A DNA stretch of 64,000 nt from Okeania sp. SIO1F9 (GTDB lineage Bacteria > Cyanobacteriota > Cyanobacteriia > Cyanobacteriales > Microcoleaceae). Both the position numbers and the translations under genes were made by a program. The stretch covers positions 8,973 to 72,972 of the forward strand of contig NZ_JAAHFW010000035.1 in NCBI RefSeq assembly GCF_010672745.1. Reading direction: 5' to 3'. The notes beneath the pieces are model-generated. The model worked only from the letters and a program-made list of their open reading frames with translations, searched no databases and had not been told where the DNA came from. Position 1 is the stretch's first letter, and every line of letters begins with the position of its first letter. Below, one piece after another: positions 1 to 58,578 of this stretch.

Positions 1-296
1 CTTTTGATAATAGTATTAGTCGGAGTGCTGTGAAAAATTATTGTGCCAATGCTAATATTTATTGTCTTCATGTAGGGTTAGCTTCTGAATATTCAGAGAT
101 AATTTGGAATGAAAATTATCGAGTACCTTCTCCAGTAAATGATGATATTTGTGATTATCCATTAGCGAGAAATTTAGTAATGTTAACTATTGCTGTTGCT
201 TGTGAAGTTGTGGTGAATTTTGCAGCGACAAAACAGCAGGATAATTTTACTGTGACTTTAGGAGATTTTGCTGTTAAGCCATTATTATTTATGTAG
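1..296 (+). CDS. Hypothetical protein. The frame is open to the window start, so this is probably the 3' end of a gene beginning upstream. It lies in the AT-rich island.
   Basis: The reading frame is open from position 1 (the ORF track starts it at a GTG at position 30). No recognisable motifs. Low GC, like the two adjacent genes. Confidence 0.2.
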   Translation, partial: FDNSISRSAVKNYCANANIYCLHVGLASEYSEIIWNENYRVPSPVNDDICDYPLARNLVMLTIAVACEVVVNFAATKQQDNFTVTLGDFAVKPLLFM

Positions 297-384
297 GATT
301 AAATCAATATATGCTATGCTGATTTAATGACTAAATTAAAGTTGATAATTGAATTACAAATATATAGCATAAAAGGTAAGATAA

Positions 385-1554
385 ATGACAACAAATATAG
401 ACATTCTTAAAGATGAAAGAGTTAACTGTTATTCTGTAATGATTCAGTTGAGAGTAGCAGAATATTTAGAAATGGTAGAAAAAGTTTTTAATGATAGAGG
501 AGGTTTAGAAGGACAAAGAGATACTTTAAAAACAAGAACAGCTATCAGGATTCGCAAAAGAATGATTGAAGACTTGGAAAAAGGAGCTATACTACCACCA
601 ATAGTTCTAGGAGTAATTACTTCAGCAGAAAAATTATCTAATATTAATAAATTAGATAAAGATAAATTATTAAATTTAATCAACGATAATTCTGAAAATA
701 GCATATCTATCATTGATGGAATGCAAAGAACAACTGCCTTATATGATGCGCAAAAAGATACTAATATTAGTGTTAATAAAGTTCGGATAGAATTCTGGAT
801 AGCATCGCAAGTAAATAGTTTAATATATCGGATGTTAGTATTAAATACAGGACAAATTCCTTGGAATTTGAGAAGACAAATTGAAACTGTTTTTCAAGCA
901 AATTTGAAGGAACTAAAAGCCAAATTTCCAGATATAGACATCATCAAAGTTGACGATCAAAAGAAACGTAAAAATTCTTGTCAGTATCAAGCAGATAAAG
1001 TCATTGAACTATTTTTAGTTTTCGGTGCTAGAAAGGAAAAAGTTGACCTACAAGAGAAATTAGCTGATGAATTTACGAGACAAGACTTTATAGAATCAGT
1101 AGCTAATCCTAATTTTACGAATATATTTTATGAAGTAATAGGATGTCTAGCTGACTTTGACTCAGCTCTATCTGCGTATGAGGATACAACTAAAGAAGGG
1201 TATTTCAAAAAAGGTAAAGACTTATTTCGTAGTCATCCAGCTTGTATTGGTTTTGTAACTTCTATCGCTTTATATGTACAAGGTAGACCTGGTAATGATT
1301 ATTGTTTAGAAAAACAAAATAAAAGATGGAGTGAAATTAAAAATAATGCAAATAAACTGTTTGAAAAAGTCAAAGAAATGAAACATAGCGAAATAGGTGA
1401 TTTTTTAGATTTTCCAACACTTAACGAACTGATTAGTAAAAAAACGGGTAAATCTACTAACTTTGAAAGAGCGTTTTTCTTAGAAGCTTTTAAGGTCTTA
1501 ATAGAAGAAGATTTCGACGTTAAAACAATGACACCATGTTGGAGAGCTTACTGA
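385..1554 (+). CDS. DGQHR/DUF262-like (ParB/Srx-fold, DndB-like) domain protein
   Basis: An N-terminal 'EGQRDTL...ILPPIVLGV' segment followed by 'SIIDGMQRTTALYDA' resembles the QR ... DGQ(H/Q)R signature pair of the DndB/DUF262 family. Very AT-rich (about 30% GC) against roughly 40% elsewhere. An 8-bp gap to the next gene suggests an operon. Confidence 0.5.
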   Translation: MTTNIDILKDERVNCYSVMIQLRVAEYLEMVEKVFNDRGGLEGQRDTLKTRTAIRIRKRMIEDLEKGAILPPIVLGVITSAEKLSNINKLDKDKLLNLINDNSENSISIIDGMQRTTALYDAQKDTNISVNKVRIEFWIASQVNSLIYRMLVLNTGQIPWNLRRQIETVFQANLKELKAKFPDIDIIKVDDQKKRKNSCQYQADKVIELFLVFGARKEKVDLQEKLADEFTRQDFIESVANPNFTNIFYEVIGCLADFDSALSAYEDTTKEGYFKKGKDLFRSHPACIGFVTSIALYVQGRPGNDYCLEKQNKRWSEIKNNANKLFEKVKEMKHSEIGDFLDFPTLNELISKKTGKSTNFERAFFLEAFKVLIEEDFDVKTMTPCWRAY

Positions 1555-1561
1555 TACCAAG

Positions 1562-2650
1562 ATGTCTAGAAATATGATCGAAGCTAATGAATATATCTTC
1601 AATAAATTAGCTGATTTTTTTGAAGTAAGTAATATAGACATCGTTATAGATGAGCAAAAAAAACGTTATATTGAGACTGATGATGAAGAAAAAGAATGGT
1701 TAAAAAAATTAAAAATAATTAACCAAAAATATCAGATTTTACCCAACTTTGCAACAGCGTCTTTTCAATATGGTGGTAATGATTATTTTGTAGCCATTGG
1801 TTCCCAAGAATATTTAGAAAATAATCAAGAAGTCATCCAGTTTATAGAATTGAATGCAGGCATAGTTACAGCTTTATTGTTTGAATTAAAAATATCAGTG
1901 GCTCGAAAAGCTAGTCCCTATGATATTGCAGATAAAATTTTTTATCCATCTCAAAAAGAAAGAATCGGATATGATTTTTCTACAGTCAGAGACTTATTTG
2001 AACCAATTTTTGTTTATAAAATCCCAGAAAATTCTCCTTTTTTGAATTTAGATGATATAACTTTGATTAGAATTTCTGGTTTTTATGCTAAAAATAGTCA
2101 ACTGGTTTCATTAAATTTTTCATCAAATACTCTGAATGAATTTGAAAAGCTATTTATTGAAGGTTCAAAAAATATACCTTATGAAAACTTACTACTCAGC
2201 TTAGTTTCTGTTTATTGGAAATATTCATTTCTCGATATCTATAGATGTATCGAAAGATTATTTCCCATATCAGAACTAGAAGACCTGCACACAAAATTAA
2301 ATATTCAAGATTCCCTATTAAACTTTGCCGATAATATTGAATCTTATATCGGTTGGAAACCAAAAGAAAATGAAGCACTAAATAAACTGATTAAAGATTC
2401 TCCCAATTCAGCACGTCAGATACTTCGTCAAGTAAAAGCTAATATTAACAATGTAGAAGAGGGAAATCTTGGAAATTTTGTCTATAAAATTCGTAATTCG
2501 ATTGTGCATTTTAGACCTGCTATAAAGCAAATTAAATTCAACGATAATAATTGGGATATGTTAATCCATTCATCTTTGCTAGTTATTGAACATTGGTATG
2601 ACAAATATGAACAACAACTTGCAGATAGTAATGTTGATAACGATAACTAA
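1562..2650 (+). CDS. HEPN-domain protein (C-terminal Rx4H motif) with an unknown N-terminal domain
   Basis: The C-terminal 'VYKIRNSIVHFRP' matches the canonical HEPN Rx4-6H motif and lies in a predicted helical region. Tightly coupled to the upstream DGQHR-like gene. AT-rich. Confidence 0.45.
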   Translation: MSRNMIEANEYIFNKLADFFEVSNIDIVIDEQKKRYIETDDEEKEWLKKLKIINQKYQILPNFATASFQYGGNDYFVAIGSQEYLENNQEVIQFIELNAGIVTALLFELKISVARKASPYDIADKIFYPSQKERIGYDFSTVRDLFEPIFVYKIPENSPFLNLDDITLIRISGFYAKNSQLVSLNFSSNTLNEFEKLFIEGSKNIPYENLLLSLVSVYWKYSFLDIYRCIERLFPISELEDLHTKLNIQDSLLNFADNIESYIGWKPKENEALNKLIKDSPNSARQILRQVKANINNVEEGNLGNFVYKIRNSIVHFRPAIKQIKFNDNNWDMLIHSSLLVIEHWYDKYEQQLADSNVDNDN

Positions 2651-2965: not shown

Positions 2966-3056
2966 AGTCGAAGGAAAAGTTAGGACAGATAAAAAGCTTA
3001 AAACTCAGACAAAGCAATTTTTCCCTCTTCCCTCTTCCTTCTTCCCTCTTCCTTCA
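2966..3056 (+). repeat. ~90-bp dispersed element ('GTCGAAGGAAARG..TAGGA..ATAAAAAGCTTAAAACTCAGACAAAG..ATTTTTCC' plus a TTCC/TCTTCC heptamer tail). Copy 1 of 4, immediately 3' of the rubrerythrin gene.
   Basis: Four copies in the same orientation (2966, 46514, 47763, 61316). Each lies just downstream of the stop codon of a minus-strand gene. Confidence 0.6.
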
Positions 3057-4379: not shown

Positions 4380-4700
4380 ATTGAAGAAGGAAGAAGGAAG
4401 AAGAAAGAAGGAAGAAGGAAGAAAGAGGAGATACTAAAAAGTTGACAACCCTCGAATGATACCCAACCAATTCTAGATACCGTGGGTGAGGTTGGGGTAT
4501 TAAACCCATCAGGGAAAAGATAAATTTGATAGTGCGAGCATCTTGCTCGCGAATATTTTAGTATCGCTAAAAAAGAAGGAAGAAGAAAGAAGGAAGAAGG
4601 AAGAAGGAAGAAAGAATAAGAGAAAAGTGGATGGGGATACTAAAAAGTTGCCACGACTCTCGATCACTCCCCAACCAATTGTTCCTTCTGCCTTCGTTTA
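4380..4700. repeat. Composite repeat region: two tandem units of (GAAGGAA)n STRR plus a ~100-bp element carrying 'GGGGTATTAAACCC..AGGGAAAAGATAAATTTGA'
   Basis: GAAGGAA heptamer tracts lie at 4380-4432 and 4567-4611. The conserved element at 4494-4530 recurs at 12617-12652 and 42325-42360. Confidence 0.7.
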
Positions 4701-5134: not shown

Positions 5135-5282
5135 AAAAGGCGATTAATAATTAATAATTCATAATTAATAATTGCCTCTTATTTTCAAGTAGAAATAATT
5201 ATTGATGGTTTACTTCCCCTCCTGGGAGTTGCTATGGGAACATTGCATGCAACGTCCCTACTGCCACTCAAGAAGGAGTTTG

Positions 5283-5400
5283 AGTACCCATCCATTTTTT
5301 CCTTGCTTCCTTCTTCCTTGCTTCCTTCTTCTTTGCTTCCTTCTTCCTTCTTCCTTCTTCCTTCTTCCTTCTTCCTTCTGACTTCTTTCTTCTTCCTTCA
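5283..5400. repeat. STRR heptamer tract (TTCCTTG/TTCCTTC)n
   Basis: Direct tandem heptamers. The overlapping ORF 5234..5464 is a translation artefact of the repeat. Confidence 0.8.
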
Positions 5401-5444
5401 AATAAATGCTAGGATTGTTCATAAAACAATTAATTTAGAGTGTA

Positions 5445-6710
5445 ATGGAACAAGAAATCTATAAGCAAGCAGTAGCAAAATCTCGTGCTAAAGACTATGA
5501 GGCAGCAATTCAATATTTTAGTAGAGTTATAGAAATTAATCCTAATTTTGCTGAAGCTTATTATGGCCGAGGTTTAGCAAAGTTTGATTTAGGAAACAAC
5601 AAAGAAGCCATTGTTGATTATACTCAAGCTTTAGCAATTAATCCTAATTATATAGATGCTTATTTAGCTCGTGGTATTGCTAAGTTGGCAGTAAAAGATA
5701 TTTCGGAAACTATTGCAGATGCAAATCAAATAATTGCTATTAATAATAACTATGCTCCGGCATATAAATTGTTGGGTAATGCTTATCGTCAACAACATAA
5801 TCAAGCAGATGCCATAGATAATTTTAAGCGAGGAGCAGAATTGTATTTAGAACAGAAAGATGTAGTTAATTGTCGGAAATGTTTGGATAATATTAAGCAA
5901 ATACAATCTGTATCTACTACTGCTGTAAAAGTTGAAAATAATCTCCAAAAAGGTGATAGTAAAACATTTTTAAATAAGATTTTAAGAAAATTTGAAAAAG
6001 GCGATCGACAGGGAGTAATAGCAGATTTAAACTGGGCTTTACAAGTAGACCCAGAAGATTCTCAAGCCTATTGTTGTCGGGGAATTATTCGTTATAAACA
6101 AGGGGAGAATTTAGGTGCAATATCAGATTTTAATCAAGCTTTGCAATTTAACGACCGAGATATTTTAGCTTATCAAAATCGAGGGATAATTCGCAGTAAA
6201 ATGGGAGATTTTAAAGGAGCGATCGCTGACCTTGATGCAGCTTTAAAAATTGAACCGAATAATTCGCTTATTTATGTAAGTCGGGGAAATACTTATCGGG
6301 ATATGGGAGCATATCAAGAGGCAATAAAAGATTATGAACAAGCATTAAAAATTAACCCTAATGAAGCCAAAGCTTTTTATCATCGAGGCATTGTTTATTT
6401 CCGTTTAGAAGAAATGAAAAAAGCCATAGATGATTATCAGAATGCTGCTAAATTATTCGGGGATGCTGAAGATTGGAATAACTATAAAAAAACCTTAGAT
6501 GACTTGAAGAAAATTCACGGAACTGTTCCTAGTCAAAATCAGAACCTTAACGAAGATAATCAATATAAACAACTACAACAAAAACTTTTAAAAATGGTTG
6601 GTGGGCATTGGGAAATGGCAGAAAGATTAATCGCAAAAGTTCGAGAAAAATATCCTGGAAGGGATAAGATTTGGTATTTGGAAAAAGTTATATCTGATTA
6701 TCAACAATAG
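5445..6710 (+). CDS. Tetratricopeptide (TPR) repeat protein
   Basis: Multiple 34-aa repeats with a 'A..Y..G.....G....A...Y..AL..NP' pattern. Confidence 0.8.
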   Translation: MEQEIYKQAVAKSRAKDYEAAIQYFSRVIEINPNFAEAYYGRGLAKFDLGNNKEAIVDYTQALAINPNYIDAYLARGIAKLAVKDISETIADANQIIAINNNYAPAYKLLGNAYRQQHNQADAIDNFKRGAELYLEQKDVVNCRKCLDNIKQIQSVSTTAVKVENNLQKGDSKTFLNKILRKFEKGDRQGVIADLNWALQVDPEDSQAYCCRGIIRYKQGENLGAISDFNQALQFNDRDILAYQNRGIIRSKMGDFKGAIADLDAALKIEPNNSLIYVSRGNTYRDMGAYQEAIKDYEQALKINPNEAKAFYHRGIVYFRLEEMKKAIDDYQNAAKLFGDAEDWNNYKKTLDDLKKIHGTVPSQNQNLNEDNQYKQLQQKLLKMVGGHWEMAERLIAKVREKYPGRDKIWYLEKVISDYQQ

Positions 6711-6783: not shown

Positions 6784-7344
6784 CTATAAATTCAACCTAA
6801 AACCAGGCAATAAATTTTCACCCGATAATTCAGTTGGAAGATTTCTTACTTCCACATCCTTTGCCAAACGATAAATTTCTACTTGTTGCTGCTGAGGATT
6901 AATTAACCATCCTAAATTTACTCCAGCATCCATATATTCTTGCATTTTGTCGCGCAACATTTCCAAATCATCTGTTCCTGACCTTAATTCAATTACAAAA
7001 TCCGGTGCAATGGGAGGAAACTTGCGCCGTTGTTCAGGTGTTAATGCTTCCCAACGTTCCCGTTTTATCCAAGCAACATCTGGGGAACGGTTAGCACCAT
7101 TTGGCAACTTAAAAACAGTAGATGAACTGAAAGTAAAACCAAGTTTTGTTTGCCGATTCCAGATGCCCAAATCAATAATTAATTCAGCTTCTCGATTACC
7201 ACTATCCCCACCAACTGGTGGCATAATAATTAATACTCCTTTAGCCGTTATTTCAAAGTTAAAATCGCAGTTATTTTGACATAACTGATAGAATTGTTCG
7301 TCTGTGAGATTAACAGTATCTAAATTTAATGTCAAAGTACTCAT
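6784..7344 (-). CDS. Uma2-family (DUF820) putative restriction-endonuclease-like protein
   Basis: A 'PDVAW...' core and overall similarity to the abundant cyanobacterial Uma2 family. The ATG at 7344 (MSTLTL...) is preferred over the extended ORF start at 7449. Confidence 0.7.
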   Translation of the reverse strand: MSTLTLNLDTVNLTDEQFYQLCQNNCDFNFEITAKGVLIIMPPVGGDSGNREAELIIDLGIWNRQTKLGFTFSSSTVFKLPNGANRSPDVAWIKRERWEALTPEQRRKFPPIAPDFVIELRSGTDDLEMLRDKMQEYMDAGVNLGWLINPQQQQVEIYRLAKDVEVRNLPTELSGENLLPGFRLNL

Positions 7345-8941: not shown

Positions 8942-10198
8942 TCATCGATAAACTGGTAAAGTAAACTGAAAACAACTACCATTATTTGGACTAGACTCTA
9001 CCCAAATTTTGCCGTAGTGGGATAAAATAATCCTTTGACATAAAGCTAGACCAATACCATAACCTTCTTGTGACTCATCACGCTTGAGTCTAAAACTATC
9101 TTCAAAAATACGACCGTGATTTTCTTTAGGAATACCAGGACCACTATCACAAATTGTCACTTGAATCTTTTGAGTAGTGCGATCGAGGATTAAAACCTGT
9201 ATTTTTCCTTGTTTAGGAGTATACTTTATGGCATTATCCAGCAAATTAACTATTACCTGACGTATTCTTTCTCGGTCAGCATAAACTAACGGTAAATCAT
9301 TAGGAATATCCGTTTTCAACTGCAAATCTTTTGACTTAAGTCGGTCTCGAAAACTAATTATCACCTCGCGACACAATGCCCCCAAATCTAATTTTTCAGG
9401 CTGAATTTGTAACTGCGTACTTTTGCCTCTTGGCCTCTCCAGAATATCTGTAATCATTCTGTCAATCACACGAACTTGGTAACGTGCCTGCTTAATTAGC
9501 CTTTCCATAAGAGTCGGAGAGCTTCTAGGAAACTCACTATTAACAGTTTTTTGAGTTGATTCTAAAGTCTCTAGAGCCAATGAAACTGCTGTCAGAGGGT
9601 TGCGTAAGTCATGAGCCAACATGGCCACAATACGGTCTTTAAATCTTAGTTGAGCTTGAAGTTGTTCCTTTTCCTGTTTGAGACGAAAAATTTCATCTGA
9701 CATTTGCATTAATTCTGCAGCACAGTCGATGGAATTAACAGATAATTTTTGATTAACAACCTGTTTAGACTGAGGTTGAGAGTTATGAGTGTGCCAATAT
9801 TCGGCGATGGAACGTTGCCAGCGTGGCCACCAATATTCCAATTTGGCAATTAAATCTGTACCAGTTAGGGTTTGTCTCGGTTCAGGATAAATTTTGAGTA
9901 GAGCAGGAGTAGCAATTAACTTGAAGTGCTCTGCCATATAGGGTTGCTCTTGTACGTCAATGACTTGAAATTCAAAGGGATAATCATAATCTTTTTCTAA
10001 ATTGTTGAGGGACTTACGAATGGCTTGAATTTGCTCTTGAGAGCCAGGACGTTTGTTGATAAACAATAAAATCTGTAAAAATCCCTGCTCATTACTATTA
10101 TTATTATTATTAGATTTTTCTGAAGACACCTGTAAAAAATTTCTAGGTAAGTGGGATAGGCTATTAGCATCTCTTTTGCAAATAGAATAATTTACCAT
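8942..10198 (-). CDS. sasA: Adaptive-response sensor histidine kinase SasA-like (N-terminal KaiB-like domain plus HisKA and HATPase)
   Basis: The N-terminal 'LLFINKRPGSQEQIQAIRKSL...EQPYMAEHFKLIATPALLKIYPEPRQTLTG' matches the KaiB-like fold of SasA. The H-box is 'MLAHDLRNPLTAVSLALETLE'. G-box: 'DSGPGIP...GYGIGL'. Confidence 0.65.
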   Translation of the reverse strand: MVNYSICKRDANSLSHLPRNFLQVSSEKSNNNNNSNEQGFLQILLFINKRPGSQEQIQAIRKSLNNLEKDYDYPFEFQVIDVQEQPYMAEHFKLIATPALLKIYPEPRQTLTGTDLIAKLEYWWPRWQRSIAEYWHTHNSQPQSKQVVNQKLSVNSIDCAAELMQMSDEIFRLKQEKEQLQAQLRFKDRIVAMLAHDLRNPLTAVSLALETLESTQKTVNSEFPRSSPTLMERLIKQARYQVRVIDRMITDILERPRGKSTQLQIQPEKLDLGALCREVIISFRDRLKSKDLQLKTDIPNDLPLVYADRERIRQVIVNLLDNAIKYTPKQGKIQVLILDRTTQKIQVTICDSGPGIPKENHGRIFEDSFRLKRDESQEGYGIGLALCQRIILSHYGKIWVESSPNNGSCFQFTLPVYR

Positions 10199-52900: not shown

Positions 52901-55279
52901 CTATCGTCGCCAAATTTTAATAGTTCTGTCTTTACTACCACTAGCAATACTATTACCATCAGGACTAAAAGTAACTGTATAAATCTCATCTTTATGCCCG
53001 GTCAAAGTACTAACTAATTCTCCTGTTTCTAAATCCCATATCTTAATATTATTATCCTTACTGCCACTAGCAATATATCGACCATCTTCGCTAATATCAA
53101 CAGATACAACTTCAGCAGTATGACCAAGAATAGTTTTGATTAATTCTCCTGTTTTTAAGCTCCAAATTTTAATAGTATTATCGTAACTCCCACTCACTAT
53201 TTTTTCCCCATCTGGACTAATATCAACAGACCTAATTACTCCTTCATGTCCAGTCAATGTATTAATTAATTCTCCAGTATATAAATCTTCAATTTTTATA
53301 GTTTGATCTGCACTACCACTAACCAATATTCTGCCGTCAGGACTAATAGCAATAGAATAAACTACATCTGAGTGATCGGGGAAATTAAAAATTAAGAAAC
53401 CTGTTTCTAAATCCCAAACTTTAACTGTTTTATCTCCACTAGCACTAGCAATTGTTTGATTATCAGAACTCATAGCAACTGACCAAACAGGTGCCCAATG
53501 TTCAAATACTCGAAATAATTCTCCTGTTTCCAAATTCCAGATCATTACTCTCCAATCATAAGTACCTACCACTAATTTAGTACCATTATTATTCAAAGCA
53601 ACTGACCAAATTGGAGAATCATCTGCAGCTAATGTGTTGATAATTTTTCCTGTAGGAACTTCTAAAATTTTTACTGTTGTATCTCTACTTCCAGTAACTA
53701 AATTTTCGCCATTATCACTAAATGCAAGAGCGCCTATAGAAGCATTAAACCTAGACAAATCTTCAACTTGATAATTCTGCCAATTTAGACCTTGTTGACA
53801 ATTTTGTAAAAGAGATTGAGCTTCAGCAAAAATGCTAGATTTTTCACTAATTAAAGTTCCTTGATTGATACATTCTTCATAGTTGCGCTCTATGTATAAG
53901 TTTTTTACAAAATTAAATTTTGCCGATTCTTGTTCTTGCTGTTGTAATACTTGTTGTTGACGTAATTGTAAATAATTTTGGAATTTAAGATATCTATATA
54001 TAGCAAAGATTATTACAATTAAGGTAGCGATAAATCCTAAAATCAACTGCCAGTTAAAAGATGATTGTTTGTTATTATTGCTAAATATTTTTTTAAATTT
54101 AGTAAGTAGAGATTTTGGTAAAACTCTGTTTTCTATTAATTCTATATCTTCTTGAGTTAGTCCTAAAATTTGCTGTAGACGCTCTAACTCCTGGCGAGTT
54201 TCTTGACTAAAAGGATATTCTTCCTGAATCGCAGCTTTTAATGTTTCTTCATATCTTTCTCCTTTCATCCGATATTTACGGTAAGGATTTAATACTTCAT
54301 CCTCAATTATTTCCGTTTCTTCCCGGGAGAGTTCTAAACTTTCTCTAAGTTCATCTAAAATTCTTCTCCCGACAATAGAAATATCTCCTCTATCGCTAGC
54401 TCGACGAATAACCTCTTCCCGATAAATTTCTTTATTATCTGTAGCGAAACTTGGAAACTCATTAATTTTTTTTAAATCTGCTATAACTTCTGCTGCTGAC
54501 TGGTAACGTTCGTGAAAGTTATAGCGCACCATTTTATCTAAAATATCTGCTAGAGAAGTAGAACAATTTGTTAGGTATCGCCAAAAAATCTCTTTTTTTT
54601 CACCATTTTCATTATCCTTTAGTTTCGATAATTCGCTGCTAGGCAATCCCGTAATTGCCTGAATGCCAATCATTCCTAAAGCATAAATATCACTATTTAA
54701 TTGGGGATTATATTCAAATTGTTCAATTGGCATATATTCCATTGTGCCAATCCTAGCTGTAGGATTTTGCTGACCAATATTAATTTCTTTAACAGCTCCA
54801 AAATCAATTAATACTAATTGATTATCCGATTTTCTTCTAATTAAATTAGCAGGCTTAATATCTCGATGAATAACACTATTTTCATGCACAAATACTAAAA
54901 TTTCTAATACTTCATTGATAATTAAAATTACTTGTTTTTCAGATAGGGGTTTACCAGGTAATATTTCATTGTCTAAAGATTGACCAGGAATAAAAGATTG
55001 AACTAGAAAAAACTCTCGATCTTCTTCAAAATATGCAAGTAGTTTAGGAATTCGATCATGTTGAGAAAGCTTTTCTAGCATCTGTGCTTCTTTTTGAAAT
55101 CGATCGCGAACGATATTAATTAATCTTCGATCATAAATACTTGGTTGTAGATGCTTAATAAAACATTGTGCTTCTCCAGGACGACGAATGTCTAAGGCCA
55201 GATAAGCATGGCCAATTTCCCCTGATTCAATAATTTTAATAATTTGATAGCGTCCATCTAAAATATTACCAATCATCAT
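52901..55279 (-). CDS. Ser/Thr protein kinase with a central transmembrane/coiled-coil region and C-terminal WD40 repeats
   Basis: Kinase subdomains 'HRDIKPANL', 'DFGAVK' and 'GTMEYMPIEQ'. The transmembrane helix is 'LILGFIATLIVIIFAIY'. About 8 WD repeats ('GH...V.SV..S.DG..I.SGS.D.TIKIW'). Confidence 0.85.
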   Translation of the reverse strand: MMIGNILDGRYQIIKIIESGEIGHAYLALDIRRPGEAQCFIKHLQPSIYDRRLINIVRDRFQKEAQMLEKLSQHDRIPKLLAYFEEDREFFLVQSFIPGQSLDNEILPGKPLSEKQVILIINEVLEILVFVHENSVIHRDIKPANLIRRKSDNQLVLIDFGAVKEINIGQQNPTARIGTMEYMPIEQFEYNPQLNSDIYALGMIGIQAITGLPSSELSKLKDNENGEKKEIFWRYLTNCSTSLADILDKMVRYNFHERYQSAAEVIADLKKINEFPSFATDNKEIYREEVIRRASDRGDISIVGRRILDELRESLELSREETEIIEDEVLNPYRKYRMKGERYEETLKAAIQEEYPFSQETRQELERLQQILGLTQEDIELIENRVLPKSLLTKFKKIFSNNNKQSSFNWQLILGFIATLIVIIFAIYRYLKFQNYLQLRQQQVLQQQEQESAKFNFVKNLYIERNYEECINQGTLISEKSSIFAEAQSLLQNCQQGLNWQNYQVEDLSRFNASIGALAFSDNGENLVTGSRDTTVKILEVPTGKIINTLAADDSPIWSVALNNNGTKLVVGTYDWRVMIWNLETGELFRVFEHWAPVWSVAMSSDNQTIASASGDKTVKVWDLETGFLIFNFPDHSDVVYSIAISPDGRILVSGSADQTIKIEDLYTGELINTLTGHEGVIRSVDISPDGEKIVSGSYDNTIKIWSLKTGELIKTILGHTAEVVSVDISEDGRYIASGSKDNNIKIWDLETGELVSTLTGHKDEIYTVTFSPDGNSIASGSKDRTIKIWRR

Positions 55280-57093: not shown

Positions 57094-58578
57094 TTAATTA
57101 TTGCGTGACACAGAAGCCTCTTCTACAAAATTGTCACCATCTCTCCTCTGATTTTTAGGAGAAGGTTTTTGATGACGAATCTTCGGTGAGCGTGGCTTTG
57201 GCTTTGGCTTCGGAGTTTCATAGACAGGGATTTCTTCCTCCTGAGCATAATCAGGCCCCATCCAAGCAGGACGAGTTTCATCATAAGCTATCTGTAAAGC
57301 TGCTGCAGCGATCGCATGGGGGTCATACTCTTCACCCAACTGAGCAATCAATGGTAAGAAAGAAGCCATTCGTTCCCCACTCAGAGCATCTCGTACCTTA
57401 TTCTGTAACTTCTGCAACTGTCGGGCTTCAATTTGAGACCGCTTAGGAATCGAGCGAGTATCCAAACGTTGACGTAGATGACGTTCTATCAACCGTAACT
57501 TCCGCTTATCTAAAGGATTAATTAACGAAATCGCTGTACCTTCACGACCTGCACGACCTGTACGACCAATACGGTGAACATAATTTTCCACACTATCAGG
57601 TAAATCGTAGTTAATCACATGAGTTAAGTGGTCCACATCTAAACCACGAGCTGCAATATCAGTTGCCACTACCCAACGTACTTGTTGATTACGAAAGCGA
57701 CTTAGCAACCGTTCTCGTTGGGATTGATTCAAGTTACCATGATATTCATCAACACTATGACCTGCTGACTGTAATTGGTTTGTTAGTTCAGCCGCTGCTT
57801 GCCTTGTCCGCACAAATATCAAAGCTGCTTCTGGGTCTTCGAGTTCTAGAACTGGCTGTAAGGCTTTAGCTTTCGGCCAACCACGAGGCACCATGTAAGC
57901 AATCTGAGAAATTCGCTTCGGAGTTGTCTTTTGTTGAGCAACTTTGACTGTTACTGGCGATCGCAAATATTTATTCACCAGTTTCTTGATTGAGTAGTCC
58001 ATGGTAGCAGAGAAGAAAGCTGTTTGATGTTCAGTGGGTGCTGCATCCAAAATTCTTTCTACATCCTGAATAAAACCCATACTCAACATTTCGTCAGCTT
58101 CGTCTAAAACCATCATTTTCAAACTATCTAGTTTTAAACTATTGCGACTCAGCATATCCAGAATCCGTCCTGGCGTTCCAACTACGATATGAACACCTCT
58201 TTGAAGGCGCTGAATCTGACGTTCAATAGATTGACCGCCATAAACAGTTAAGACCTGTAATCGATGTTTCGTTGGACTCTTGTTATCCAAACCAGCAATT
58301 TGACGAATCGCTTCTGTAACTTGCAGCGCTAACTCACGAGTGGGAGTCAAAATCAAAGCTTGAACTGCCTTTGTCTCCAGCTCAATTCTCTCCAATATGG
58401 GTAACGAAAACGCTGCGGTTTTACCTGTTCCTGTTTGGGCTTGACCTACAATATCGGTTCCTGCCAGCAAATGAGGTATTGCTTGGACTTGAATCGGAGT
58501 AGGTTCAGTAAAACCAATTGTTTCCAGATGATTTACACGCTCTTGTGAAATTCCTAAATTTGCAAACGATAAATCCAT
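57094..58578 (-). CDS. crhR: DEAD-box ATP-dependent RNA helicase (CrhR/CrhC-like)
   Basis: Q-motif 'TEPTPIQ', Walker A 'AQTGTGKT', 'DEAD', 'SAT' and 'HRIGRTGRAG'. A basic C-terminal tail. Confidence 0.85.
   Translation of the reverse strand: MDLSFANLGISQERVNHLETIGFTEPTPIQVQAIPHLLAGTDIVGQAQTGTGKTAAFSLPILERIELETKAVQALILTPTRELALQVTEAIRQIAGLDNKSPTKHRLQVLTVYGGQSIERQIQRLQRGVHIVVGTPGRILDMLSRNSLKLDSLKMMVLDEADEMLSMGFIQDVERILDAAPTEHQTAFFSATMDYSIKKLVNKYLRSPVTVKVAQQKTTPKRISQIAYMVPRGWPKAKALQPVLELEDPEAALIFVRTRQAAAELTNQLQSAGHSVDEYHGNLNQSQRERLLSRFRNQQVRWVVATDIAARGLDVDHLTHVINYDLPDSVENYVHRIGRTGRAGREGTAISLINPLDKRKLRLIERHLRQRLDTRSIPKRSQIEARQLQKLQNKVRDALSGERMASFLPLIAQLGEEYDPHAIAAAALQIAYDETRPAWMGPDYAQEEEIPVYETPKPKPKPRSPKIRHQKPSPKNQRRDGDNFVEEASVSRNN

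Follow-up and report, generated by a model that had tools for sequence, protein, structure and literature searches.

Two adjacent genes near the start of a 64,000-nucleotide (nt) stretch of the genome of Okeania sp. SIO1F9 (assembly GCF_010672745.1, contig NZ_JAAHFW010000035.1, forward-strand positions 8,973 to 72,972; this whole stretch is called the window) probably constitute a divergent cyanobacterial form of the antiphage system Dazbog. They would represent a self-contained, horizontally mobile dzbA-dzbB operon, for which the working model is a DzbA sensor combined with a DzbB HEPN RNase. Membership of the first product, DzbA, in Dazbog is firm, and that of the second, DzbB, is supported by sequence comparison at the family level and via the HEPN core only. 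What the computations here establish is membership in the family, conservation of the motifs, the HEPN fold, strict synteny and transfer of the pair as a cassette.

Millman et al. (2022, bioRxiv 10.1101/2022.05.11.491447) validated the antiphage activity of Dazbog, whose two genes encode DzbA (DUF262) and DzbB, by experiments in Bacillus. Deletion of the DUF262 gene (dzbA) abolishes defense. The system acts by abortive infection, with growth arrest at high multiplicity of infection in Bacillus, and becomes toxic once the cytosine methylase of phage SPR is expressed, the methylase alone being sufficient; phages escaping Dazbog have lost CCGG methylation, and the trigger in Bacillus is cytosine-5 methylation by the phage methylase (Stokar-Avihail et al. 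2022, bioRxiv 10.1101/2022.08.27.505566). Reviews describe Dazbog as largely uncharacterized.

An initial annotation of the window, made from the sequence alone, read the pair as an undescribed defense or abortive-infection module combining a DUF262/ParB-like (DGQHR-type) protein with a HEPN protein. This interpretation is partly supported. Its domain calls and its guess at defense were correct, the latter matching Dazbog, but the pair is not undescribed, as a 2013 catalogue already contained HEPN families that share operons with ParB-fold genes (Anantharaman et al. 2013, PMC3710099) and Dazbog itself was validated in 2022 (Millman et al. 2022). Two findings are modestly new: the HEPN dyad does not vary anywhere in the DzbB family, verified proteins included, and there is a cyanobacterial clade whose DzbB in the window escapes the PADLOC DzbB model. 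Within the literature library searched, no paper links Dazbog or DzbB to HEPN; two papers use both words, and their mentions of Dazbog draw no connection to HEPN. The features of the operon, all on the forward strand, are as follows.

310 to 384 (+): upstream leader traveling with the cassette; similarity to other Okeania and Trichodesmium copies begins at 310 to 358
385 to 1554 (+): dzbA (open reading frame 1, ORF1), 389 amino acids (aa); DUF262/ParB-like (GmrSD_N-type) protein, presumed sensor/NTPase subunit of Dazbog
514 to 519 (+): codons of Q44-R45, first DUF262 signature motif, without variation in 23 DzbA homologues
715 to 729 (+): codons of D111-G112-M113-Q114-R115, DGQQR-type motif of DUF262/DGQHR proteins, without variation in 23 DzbA homologues
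1555 to 1561 (+): 7-nt spacer between the dzbA stop and the dzbB start, read from the sequence; tight coupling
1562 to 2650 (+): dzbB (ORF2), 362 aa; alpha/beta N-domain and C-terminal HEPN domain, presumed RNase effector
2102 to 2647 (+): C-terminal, all-helical HEPN domain, residues 181 to 362
2492 to 2509 (+): codons of R311-N312-S313-I314-V315-H316, putative HEPN Rx4H catalytic motif, conserved in homologues

Both reading frames are as initially annotated, and only the gap separating them, given as 8 nt, is 1 nt shorter. The product of ORF2 is 100% identical to an annotated hypothetical protein of Okeania, a marine filamentous cyanobacterium.

DzbA is a conserved DUF262/ParB-like protein

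The PADLOC DzbA model (PDLC03835) matches ORF1 with an E value of 3.1e-59, residues 5 to 387 aligning with model positions 5 to 383 of 393. BLASTP against the verified DzbA of B. mycoides GOE9 gave an E value of 4e-24 and 30% identity over residues 8 to 210, in the N-terminal half, so that the match to a verified DzbA covers the N-terminal 213 residues only. Pfam GmrSD_N (DUF262, PF03235) scored 27.3 bits, under its cutoff of 33.2, and a precomputed PF03235 assignment is present on several homologues of 84 to 92% identity. The initial call of a DUF262/ParB-like protein stands.

Searches found 2109 homologues of ORF1. In an alignment of 23 of them, drawn from Cyanobacteria, Bacteroidota, Proteobacteria and Firmicutes and reaching down to 38% identity, Q44-R45 and D111-G112-M113-Q114-R115 are invariant, as are the YRMLVLNTGQVPW block and the C-terminal CWRAY tail. 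Since the QR ... DG(M)QR signature does not vary across these homologues, it is real and under selection. DzbA is far more conserved than DzbB (mean column identity, 53% versus 29 to 34%), and the Devosia proteins likewise share 41% identity with ORF1 and 24% with ORF2, ORF1 being the slower evolving. A tblastn search of plasmids with ORF1 gave six matches, all proteobacterial and none from Bacillus. Sequence searches of the PDB with both proteins found no solved relative, and DUF1524 (HNH) gave no match to ORF1 or ORF2 in Pfam, PADLOC and TIGR profile scans.

In GmrSD, BrxU and SspE, enzymes that nick or cut DNA carrying modifications, sensing and NTPase functions both belong to the DUF262 domain, and DNA methylation triggers Dazbog. 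These facts, together with cytosine methyltransferases near 3 of 21 loci, raise the alternative that DzbA, with or without DzbB, cuts or nicks methylated phage DNA in the manner of those type IV restriction systems and that the HEPN domain has no RNase role. This is very unlikely, as DUF1524/HNH or any other recognizable DNase domain is found in neither protein nor in any neighbor, and the toxicity of the methylase alone to Dazbog cells, with growth arrest at high multiplicity, describes abortive infection and not phage-specific restriction.

The HEPN domain of DzbB

ORF2 has 136 close homologues, and a profile built from 45 of them retrieved 812 representative clusters (704 at E ≤ 1e-10), nearly all full length (~350 aa). 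Across 95 homologues, the most distant at ~21% identity, R311 and H316 show no variation, and Y227, E231 and Y308 are likewise invariant. Within the KIRNSIVH sequence, in which the initial annotation had recognized a terminal HEPN motif, N312 and V315 are also invariant or nearly so, and S313 and I314 are invariant in the closer homologue set only. ORF2 thus carries the Rx4-6H motif of the HEPN superfamily (R311-x4-H316), and its C-terminal domain has the all-alpha, four-helix core of the HEPN fold.

The AF2 model of DzbB has a pLDDT of 91. The closest structural relative of the C-domain is HepT. Other HEPN proteins named alongside it are the toxins 7ae2 and 8xdj, AF0298, AbiA, RnlA, LsoA, Csm6, Csx1, the sacsin HEPN domain, HI0074 and Cas13h. 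The C-domain is preceded by a conserved alpha/beta N-domain of ~185 to 200 aa (about residues 1 to 185), smaller than the ~230 aa first proposed.

No curated HEPN profile matched ORF2 or its relatives above its threshold. The Pfam pEK499_p136 HEPN profile matched ORF2 with an E value of 8.7e-4 and 19.5 bits, below the cutoff of 26.6, and HEPN_Apea gave weak matches in 10 of 45 relatives (best E = 6.4e-4; 18.6 bits in ten scanned singly; cutoff, 24.4). RiboL-PSP-HEPN matched one relative (E = 0.33), the PADLOC models Cas13a, CARF_HEPN and Cas13-ApeA were each matched by single relatives only, and no relative matched the MAE_28990 model among the families reported in the profile scans. Profile support for a HEPN domain in ORF2 is weak but consistent. 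UniRef automatic annotation names an ORF2 cluster mate "Apea-like HEPN domain-containing protein"; for a second UniRef label, "ApeA N-terminal domain," no ApeA_NTD match was reproduced with Pfam.

These matches and names bear on a further alternative, in which the DzbB HEPN domain would be activated, without direct protein contact, by a small nucleotide ligand that DzbA makes or releases, for example when its NTPase or nuclease activity acts on modified DNA. ApeA is a HEPN tRNA anticodon nuclease that is switched on when 5'-phosphorylated deoxydinucleotides occupy a pocket between its N-terminal and HEPN domains (bioRxiv 10.64898/2026.01.26.701840), and DzbB similarly has a conserved extra N-domain. 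However, ApeA is a largely helical, three-domain protein of ~580 aa that acts alone, whereas DzbB has ~350 aa, an alpha/beta N-domain and always DzbA upstream. With all HEPN_Apea scores below threshold and the ApeA_NTD label irreproducible, such ligand activation is very unlikely.

Shortened or fragmented dzbB copies occur in several genomes (loci L020, L024 and L037; proteins P0036, P0076 and P0088). They include ~250-aa proteins and one locus with the HEPN end only, and Table S15 of Millman et al. contains notes that "Gene B is fragmented." Such recurrent fragmentation hints at frequent inactivation of a putative toxic effector.

Synteny and mobility of the pair

Loci with an ORF2 relative numbered 43. 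In 39 of these, a relative of ORF1 immediately precedes it in the same orientation, and the other four are contig-edge or fragmentary loci. The 39 syntenic loci come from Cyanobacteria, Desulfobacterales, Flavobacterium, Chryseobacterium, Bordetella, Erythrobacter, Devosia, Microvirga, Lachnospiraceae, Oscillospiraceae and Bacteroidales, so that the neighborhood conservation proposed as a check extends across four phyla. The spacer between the genes is 7 nt in most cyanobacterial loci and 1 to 2 nt in Bordetella and Devosia. As in Dazbog, the genes are an adjacent, codirectional pair with no further obligatory gene.

Genomes of the same species (L001 and L002) share the cassette flanks with the window. 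In Trichodesmium and other Okeania genomes (L003 to L005), nucleotide similarity of 82 to 86% is limited to the region from ~310/358 to 2640, and the flanks are unrelated. Because similarity ends at the cassette, the two genes move as a bare cassette, which bears out the horizontal acquisition first suggested by base composition. At the cassette ends, no repeats, direct or inverted, reached significance, and there was neither a tRNA gene nor an integrase.

The G+C content is 29.1% for positions 385 to 2650 and 29.2% for positions 1 to 2700, compared with 37.4% in the remaining window, and the ten lowest-G+C windows (2,266 nt; 1,235 scanned) all overlap the dzbA-dzbB region. The region is thus as markedly AT rich as initially described. 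It was also thought to belong to an island extending past the window start, but G+C content on the source contig (L044) is back at 33 to 39% by ~400 nt upstream of that point; the AT-rich tract therefore comprises little more than the cassette and the 3' end of the gene before it, with no larger island.

Neither here nor at the other loci examined is the cassette in a defense island, a setting whose presence had been proposed for checking. Its neighbors here are housekeeping genes (rubrerythrin, Fur and glyoxalase), as they are in Trichocoleus and Gloeothece; a PADLOC census of 144 neighboring ORFs within 6 kb of 21 loci gave no recurrent partner and no recurrent third gene; and the remaining window lacks a defense island. 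As initially noted, no DndCDE, SspBCD or DUF1524 partner occurs at this locus, and none occurs among the census neighbors. The accompanying statement that no modification genes are nearby holds for this locus. Elsewhere, 3 of the 144 census ORFs (loci L003 to L041) encode cytosine-5/type II DNA methyltransferases; cytosine methylation is the known Dazbog trigger.

Relationship to verified Dazbog proteins and proposed mechanism

A third homology search, run with a profile of distant members, retrieved nothing from Bacillus. The verified proteins in the supplement of Millman et al., which provided the link to Dazbog instead, are from B. mycoides GOE9 and B. cereus FORC_013, with a DzbA of 394 aa and DzbB proteins of 357 and 367 aa. 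The PADLOC DzbB model was matched by 42 of 45 ORF2 relatives at E ≤ 10 (best, 2.6e-13) and by 34 of 50 at E ≤ 1e-3, and in either scan DzbB was the sole PADLOC family matched by more than two relatives. A hidden Markov model (HMM) of the 95-sequence family scored 20.6 bits against B. mycoides DzbB, where the maximum of 1000 shuffles was 15.8. Its positions 218 to 317 correspond to DzbB residues 222 to 328, i.e., the HEPN core only, collinear from the Y..IE helix to Rx4H. The verified Bacillus DzbB carries YSIRNLYVH (Rx4H = RNLYVH), which aligns with the ORF2 motif, and its FYMLYQVIELL is the counterpart of FLDIYRCIERL. The Dazbog taxa in Table S15 of Millman et al. (Anabaena, Dolichospermum, Aphanizomenon, Cyanobium, Lachnospiraceae, Pseudoalteromonas and Rhodobacteraceae) recur among the homologues found here, although gene identifiers could not be mapped one to one.

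In GmrSD, BrxU and SspE, it is the DUF262 domain that detects modified DNA. By analogy, DzbA, with its DUF262/ParB fold and intact QR and DGxQR nucleotide-binding motifs, would be the sensor recognizing modified phage DNA. Instead of a fused DUF1524 DNase, as in GmrSD and SspE, it would control a separate partner, DzbB. The C-terminal HEPN domain of DzbB (Rx4H; R311/H316) would be the RNase that, once released or activated, cleaves cellular RNA and causes growth arrest, i.e., abortive infection. The assignment of DzbB as an RNase effector, and of a DzbA-DzbB complex, is one that we infer. Every DzbB examined, including the two verified Bacillus proteins, has the invariant Rx4H dyad, so that in Dazbog a DUF262 sensor for modified DNA may be coupled to an RNase.

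A number of points weigh against this assignment and model. ORF2 itself has no match to the PADLOC DzbB model (PDLC03836) even at E ≤ 10, and BLASTP between ORF2 and B. mycoides DzbB is not significant (E = 0.29). The hhalign alignment of the ORF2 family with B. mycoides DzbB, which spans 60 collinear columns up to the Rx4H motif, has a probability of only 53% (E = 1.3e-4). In its N-terminal domain, ORF2 does not align with Bacillus DzbB, nor does the C-terminal half of DzbA have a BLASTP alignment to Bacillus DzbA; function in the cyanobacterial clade is consequently extrapolated. The RNase activity of DzbB is a prediction from its motif and fold. Millman et al. (2022) were unable to transform a deletion of dzbB, "possibly due to toxicity," and grouped it with deletions of antitoxin genes. 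DzbA alone may thus be toxic and DzbB may restrain it, which fits poorly with DzbB as a simple toxin. Finally, the DNA of cyanobacteria is usually rich in endogenous 5-methylcytosine (m5C) and N6-methyladenine (m6A), so an m5C trigger in Okeania would need site specificity, or the trigger would have to be different.

The deletion result leads to the chief rival explanation, in which the roles are reversed as in a toxin-antitoxin-like system: DzbA, possibly a DNA nickase or NTP-consuming DNA clamp, would be toxic, and DzbB would restrain it until infection, with HEPN as a regulator or auxiliary nuclease. The deletions with which that of dzbB was grouped are those of the antitoxins psyrA, shosA and rmrA (Millman et al. 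2022), and HEPN-linked ParB-fold domains were treated as DNases by Anantharaman et al. (2013, PMC3710099). The lower column identity of DzbB (29 to 34%, against 53% for DzbA) would also be expected if DzbB were the fast-evolving, phage-facing part. However, 95 sequences show no variation in the Rx4H dyad, Y227, E231 or Y308, and the verified DzbB shares these residues, which argues for a catalytic HEPN domain over a mere inhibitor; HEPN is the toxic RNase in the characterized modules HepT, RnlA/LsoA, Csm6 and ApeA; and the failed dzbB transformation went without further analysis in the original study. Reversed roles are therefore unlikely, though they rank above both direct restriction and activation as in ApeA.

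The favored reading, with DzbA as sensor and DzbB as effector, can be extended. The Dazbog effector would be the HEPN RNase of the DzbB C-domain (R311/H316) under the control of the DUF262 sensor DzbA, so that the DNase module of type IV systems is swapped for an infection-aborting RNase, and the cyanobacterial clade would be a distinct subtype in which the nonalignable DzbB N-domain and DzbA C-domain set another trigger specificity. We give this extended proposal about an even chance. If it is true, hosts with heavily methylated DNA of their own would need that other trigger specificity. In addition, the cyanobacterial clade may be undercounted in surveys, because the PADLOC DzbB model misses the window DzbB even at a permissive threshold.

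Other features of the locus and window

A sigma-70-like match in the leader (TTGATA-17-TAGCAT, positions 342 to 370) is weak, and such sites are no more frequent than by chance (9 found versus 15 expected). Terminator-like sites are at or below chance level. A GC-rich hairpin, GTGCGGGCATCTTGCCCGCGAT, lies at positions 2744 to 2768 in AT-rich surroundings ~100 nt 3' of dzbB; it was not called as a terminator and is outside the block common to the Trichodesmium and other Okeania copies.

Upstream of the cassette, a stand-alone ThiF/E1-like gene of 211 aa occupies window positions 1 to 296 on the forward strand, with its upstream part on the source contig (L044, 8100 to 8735). Over its first ~130 residues, the product matches the E1 portion of the PADLOC CBASS "E1-E2" (Cap2) models (best E = 5.9e-14). 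The gene is kept beside the cassette in the same-species genomes (L001 and L002) only and is therefore no part of Dazbog. In one of these, Okeania sp. SIO3B5 (L002), its 3' end (window positions 1 to 276) occurs twice, at 5956 to 6231 and 6894 to 7170, ~940 nt apart and with 93 to 97% identity, which suggests that a segment adjoining the 5' side of the cassette was locally duplicated or inserted. Farther upstream, positions 1 to 7700 of L044 contain an IS66-family transposase, a helix-turn-helix (HTH) gene, PatG-domain fragments (cyanobactin protease), a 23S_rRNA_IVP four-helix-bundle gene and hypothetical genes; this looks like a variable, mobile-element-rich region bordering housekeeping genes.

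In the remaining window, a Ser/Thr kinase and a helicase are the sole PADLOC matches. The kinase domain is N-terminal in a 792-aa protein (52904 to 55279, reverse strand) matching PD-T4-6 (E = 4e-90), which is likely a generic cyanobacterial kinase and not a defense gene. The helicase (57097 to 58578, reverse strand) matches the BrxH and DpdF helicase models (E ~1e-22). Short, intergenic, pyrimidine-rich repeats of the CCCTCTTCC/TTCTTCC type occur at positions 3020 to 3055, 4380 to 4680 and 5200 to 5420, and also on L044. They yield spurious "LLPSSFFLL" ORFs when translated and probably belong to a dispersed cyanobacterial repeat family.

Comparison with known systems

DzbA has the same ParB/DUF262-like fold and motif type as DndB/DGQHR proteins (TIGR03187), DndB being a regulator of Dnd phosphorothioation, and the table of Millman et al. 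labels it "DndB." Membership in Dnd was rejected, as TIGR03187 scored 17.7 bits against a cutoff of 58.85 and no dndCDE or sspBCD genes are nearby. GmrSD, BrxU and SspE, which represent type IV restriction and phosphorothioate-sensing systems, share with DzbA a DGQQR-type motif in an N-terminal sensing domain of the DUF262/ParB-like NTPase type, and also the response to modified DNA. Their DUF262 domain, however, is fused to a DUF1524 HNH nuclease and they cleave phage DNA, whereas Dazbog lacks DUF1524, has a separate HEPN protein as presumed effector and leads to abortive infection or growth arrest. DUF1524 is absent from both Okeania proteins and from the neighbors examined, which places the pair outside the GmrSD/SspE/BrxU group.

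HEPN families encoded in operons with ParB-fold genes, such as MAE_28990 and RiboL-PSP-HEPN (PMC3710099), have in common with DzbB the general theme, first noted in the cyanobacterium Microcystis, of conflict systems that link a HEPN RNase to a ParB-fold partner. Membership of DzbB in either named family could not be shown. ApeA resembles DzbB in its HEPN_Apea-type domain, structurally nearest HepT, in combining an N-terminal accessory domain with a C-terminal HEPN domain and in acting by abortive infection. Unlike DzbB, which is always paired with DzbA, it is a single, deoxydinucleotide-activated protein forming decamers or dodecamers. Orthology was rejected on architecture, a lone three-domain protein of ~580 aa contrasting with a two-domain protein of 362 aa preceded by DzbA.

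The closest counterpart is the verified Bacillus Dazbog. The Okeania copy has diverged strongly, its DzbB N-domain and DzbA C-half being nonalignable by sequence, and it comes from a different host, a filamentous cyanobacterium of marine habitat. Both are two-gene operons with the same gene order and similar protein sizes (394 and 357 aa in Bacillus; 389 and 362 aa here). In both, gene 1 encodes a DUF262 protein with QR and DGxQR motifs, the gene 2 product ends in a HEPN core that contains the Y..IE helix and has Rx4H in the same position, and there is neither a third gene nor a DNase domain. The Dazbog catalogue of Millman et al. already includes Nostocales cyanobacteria, and the Okeania locus is a marine cyanobacterial addition to a validated defense system.

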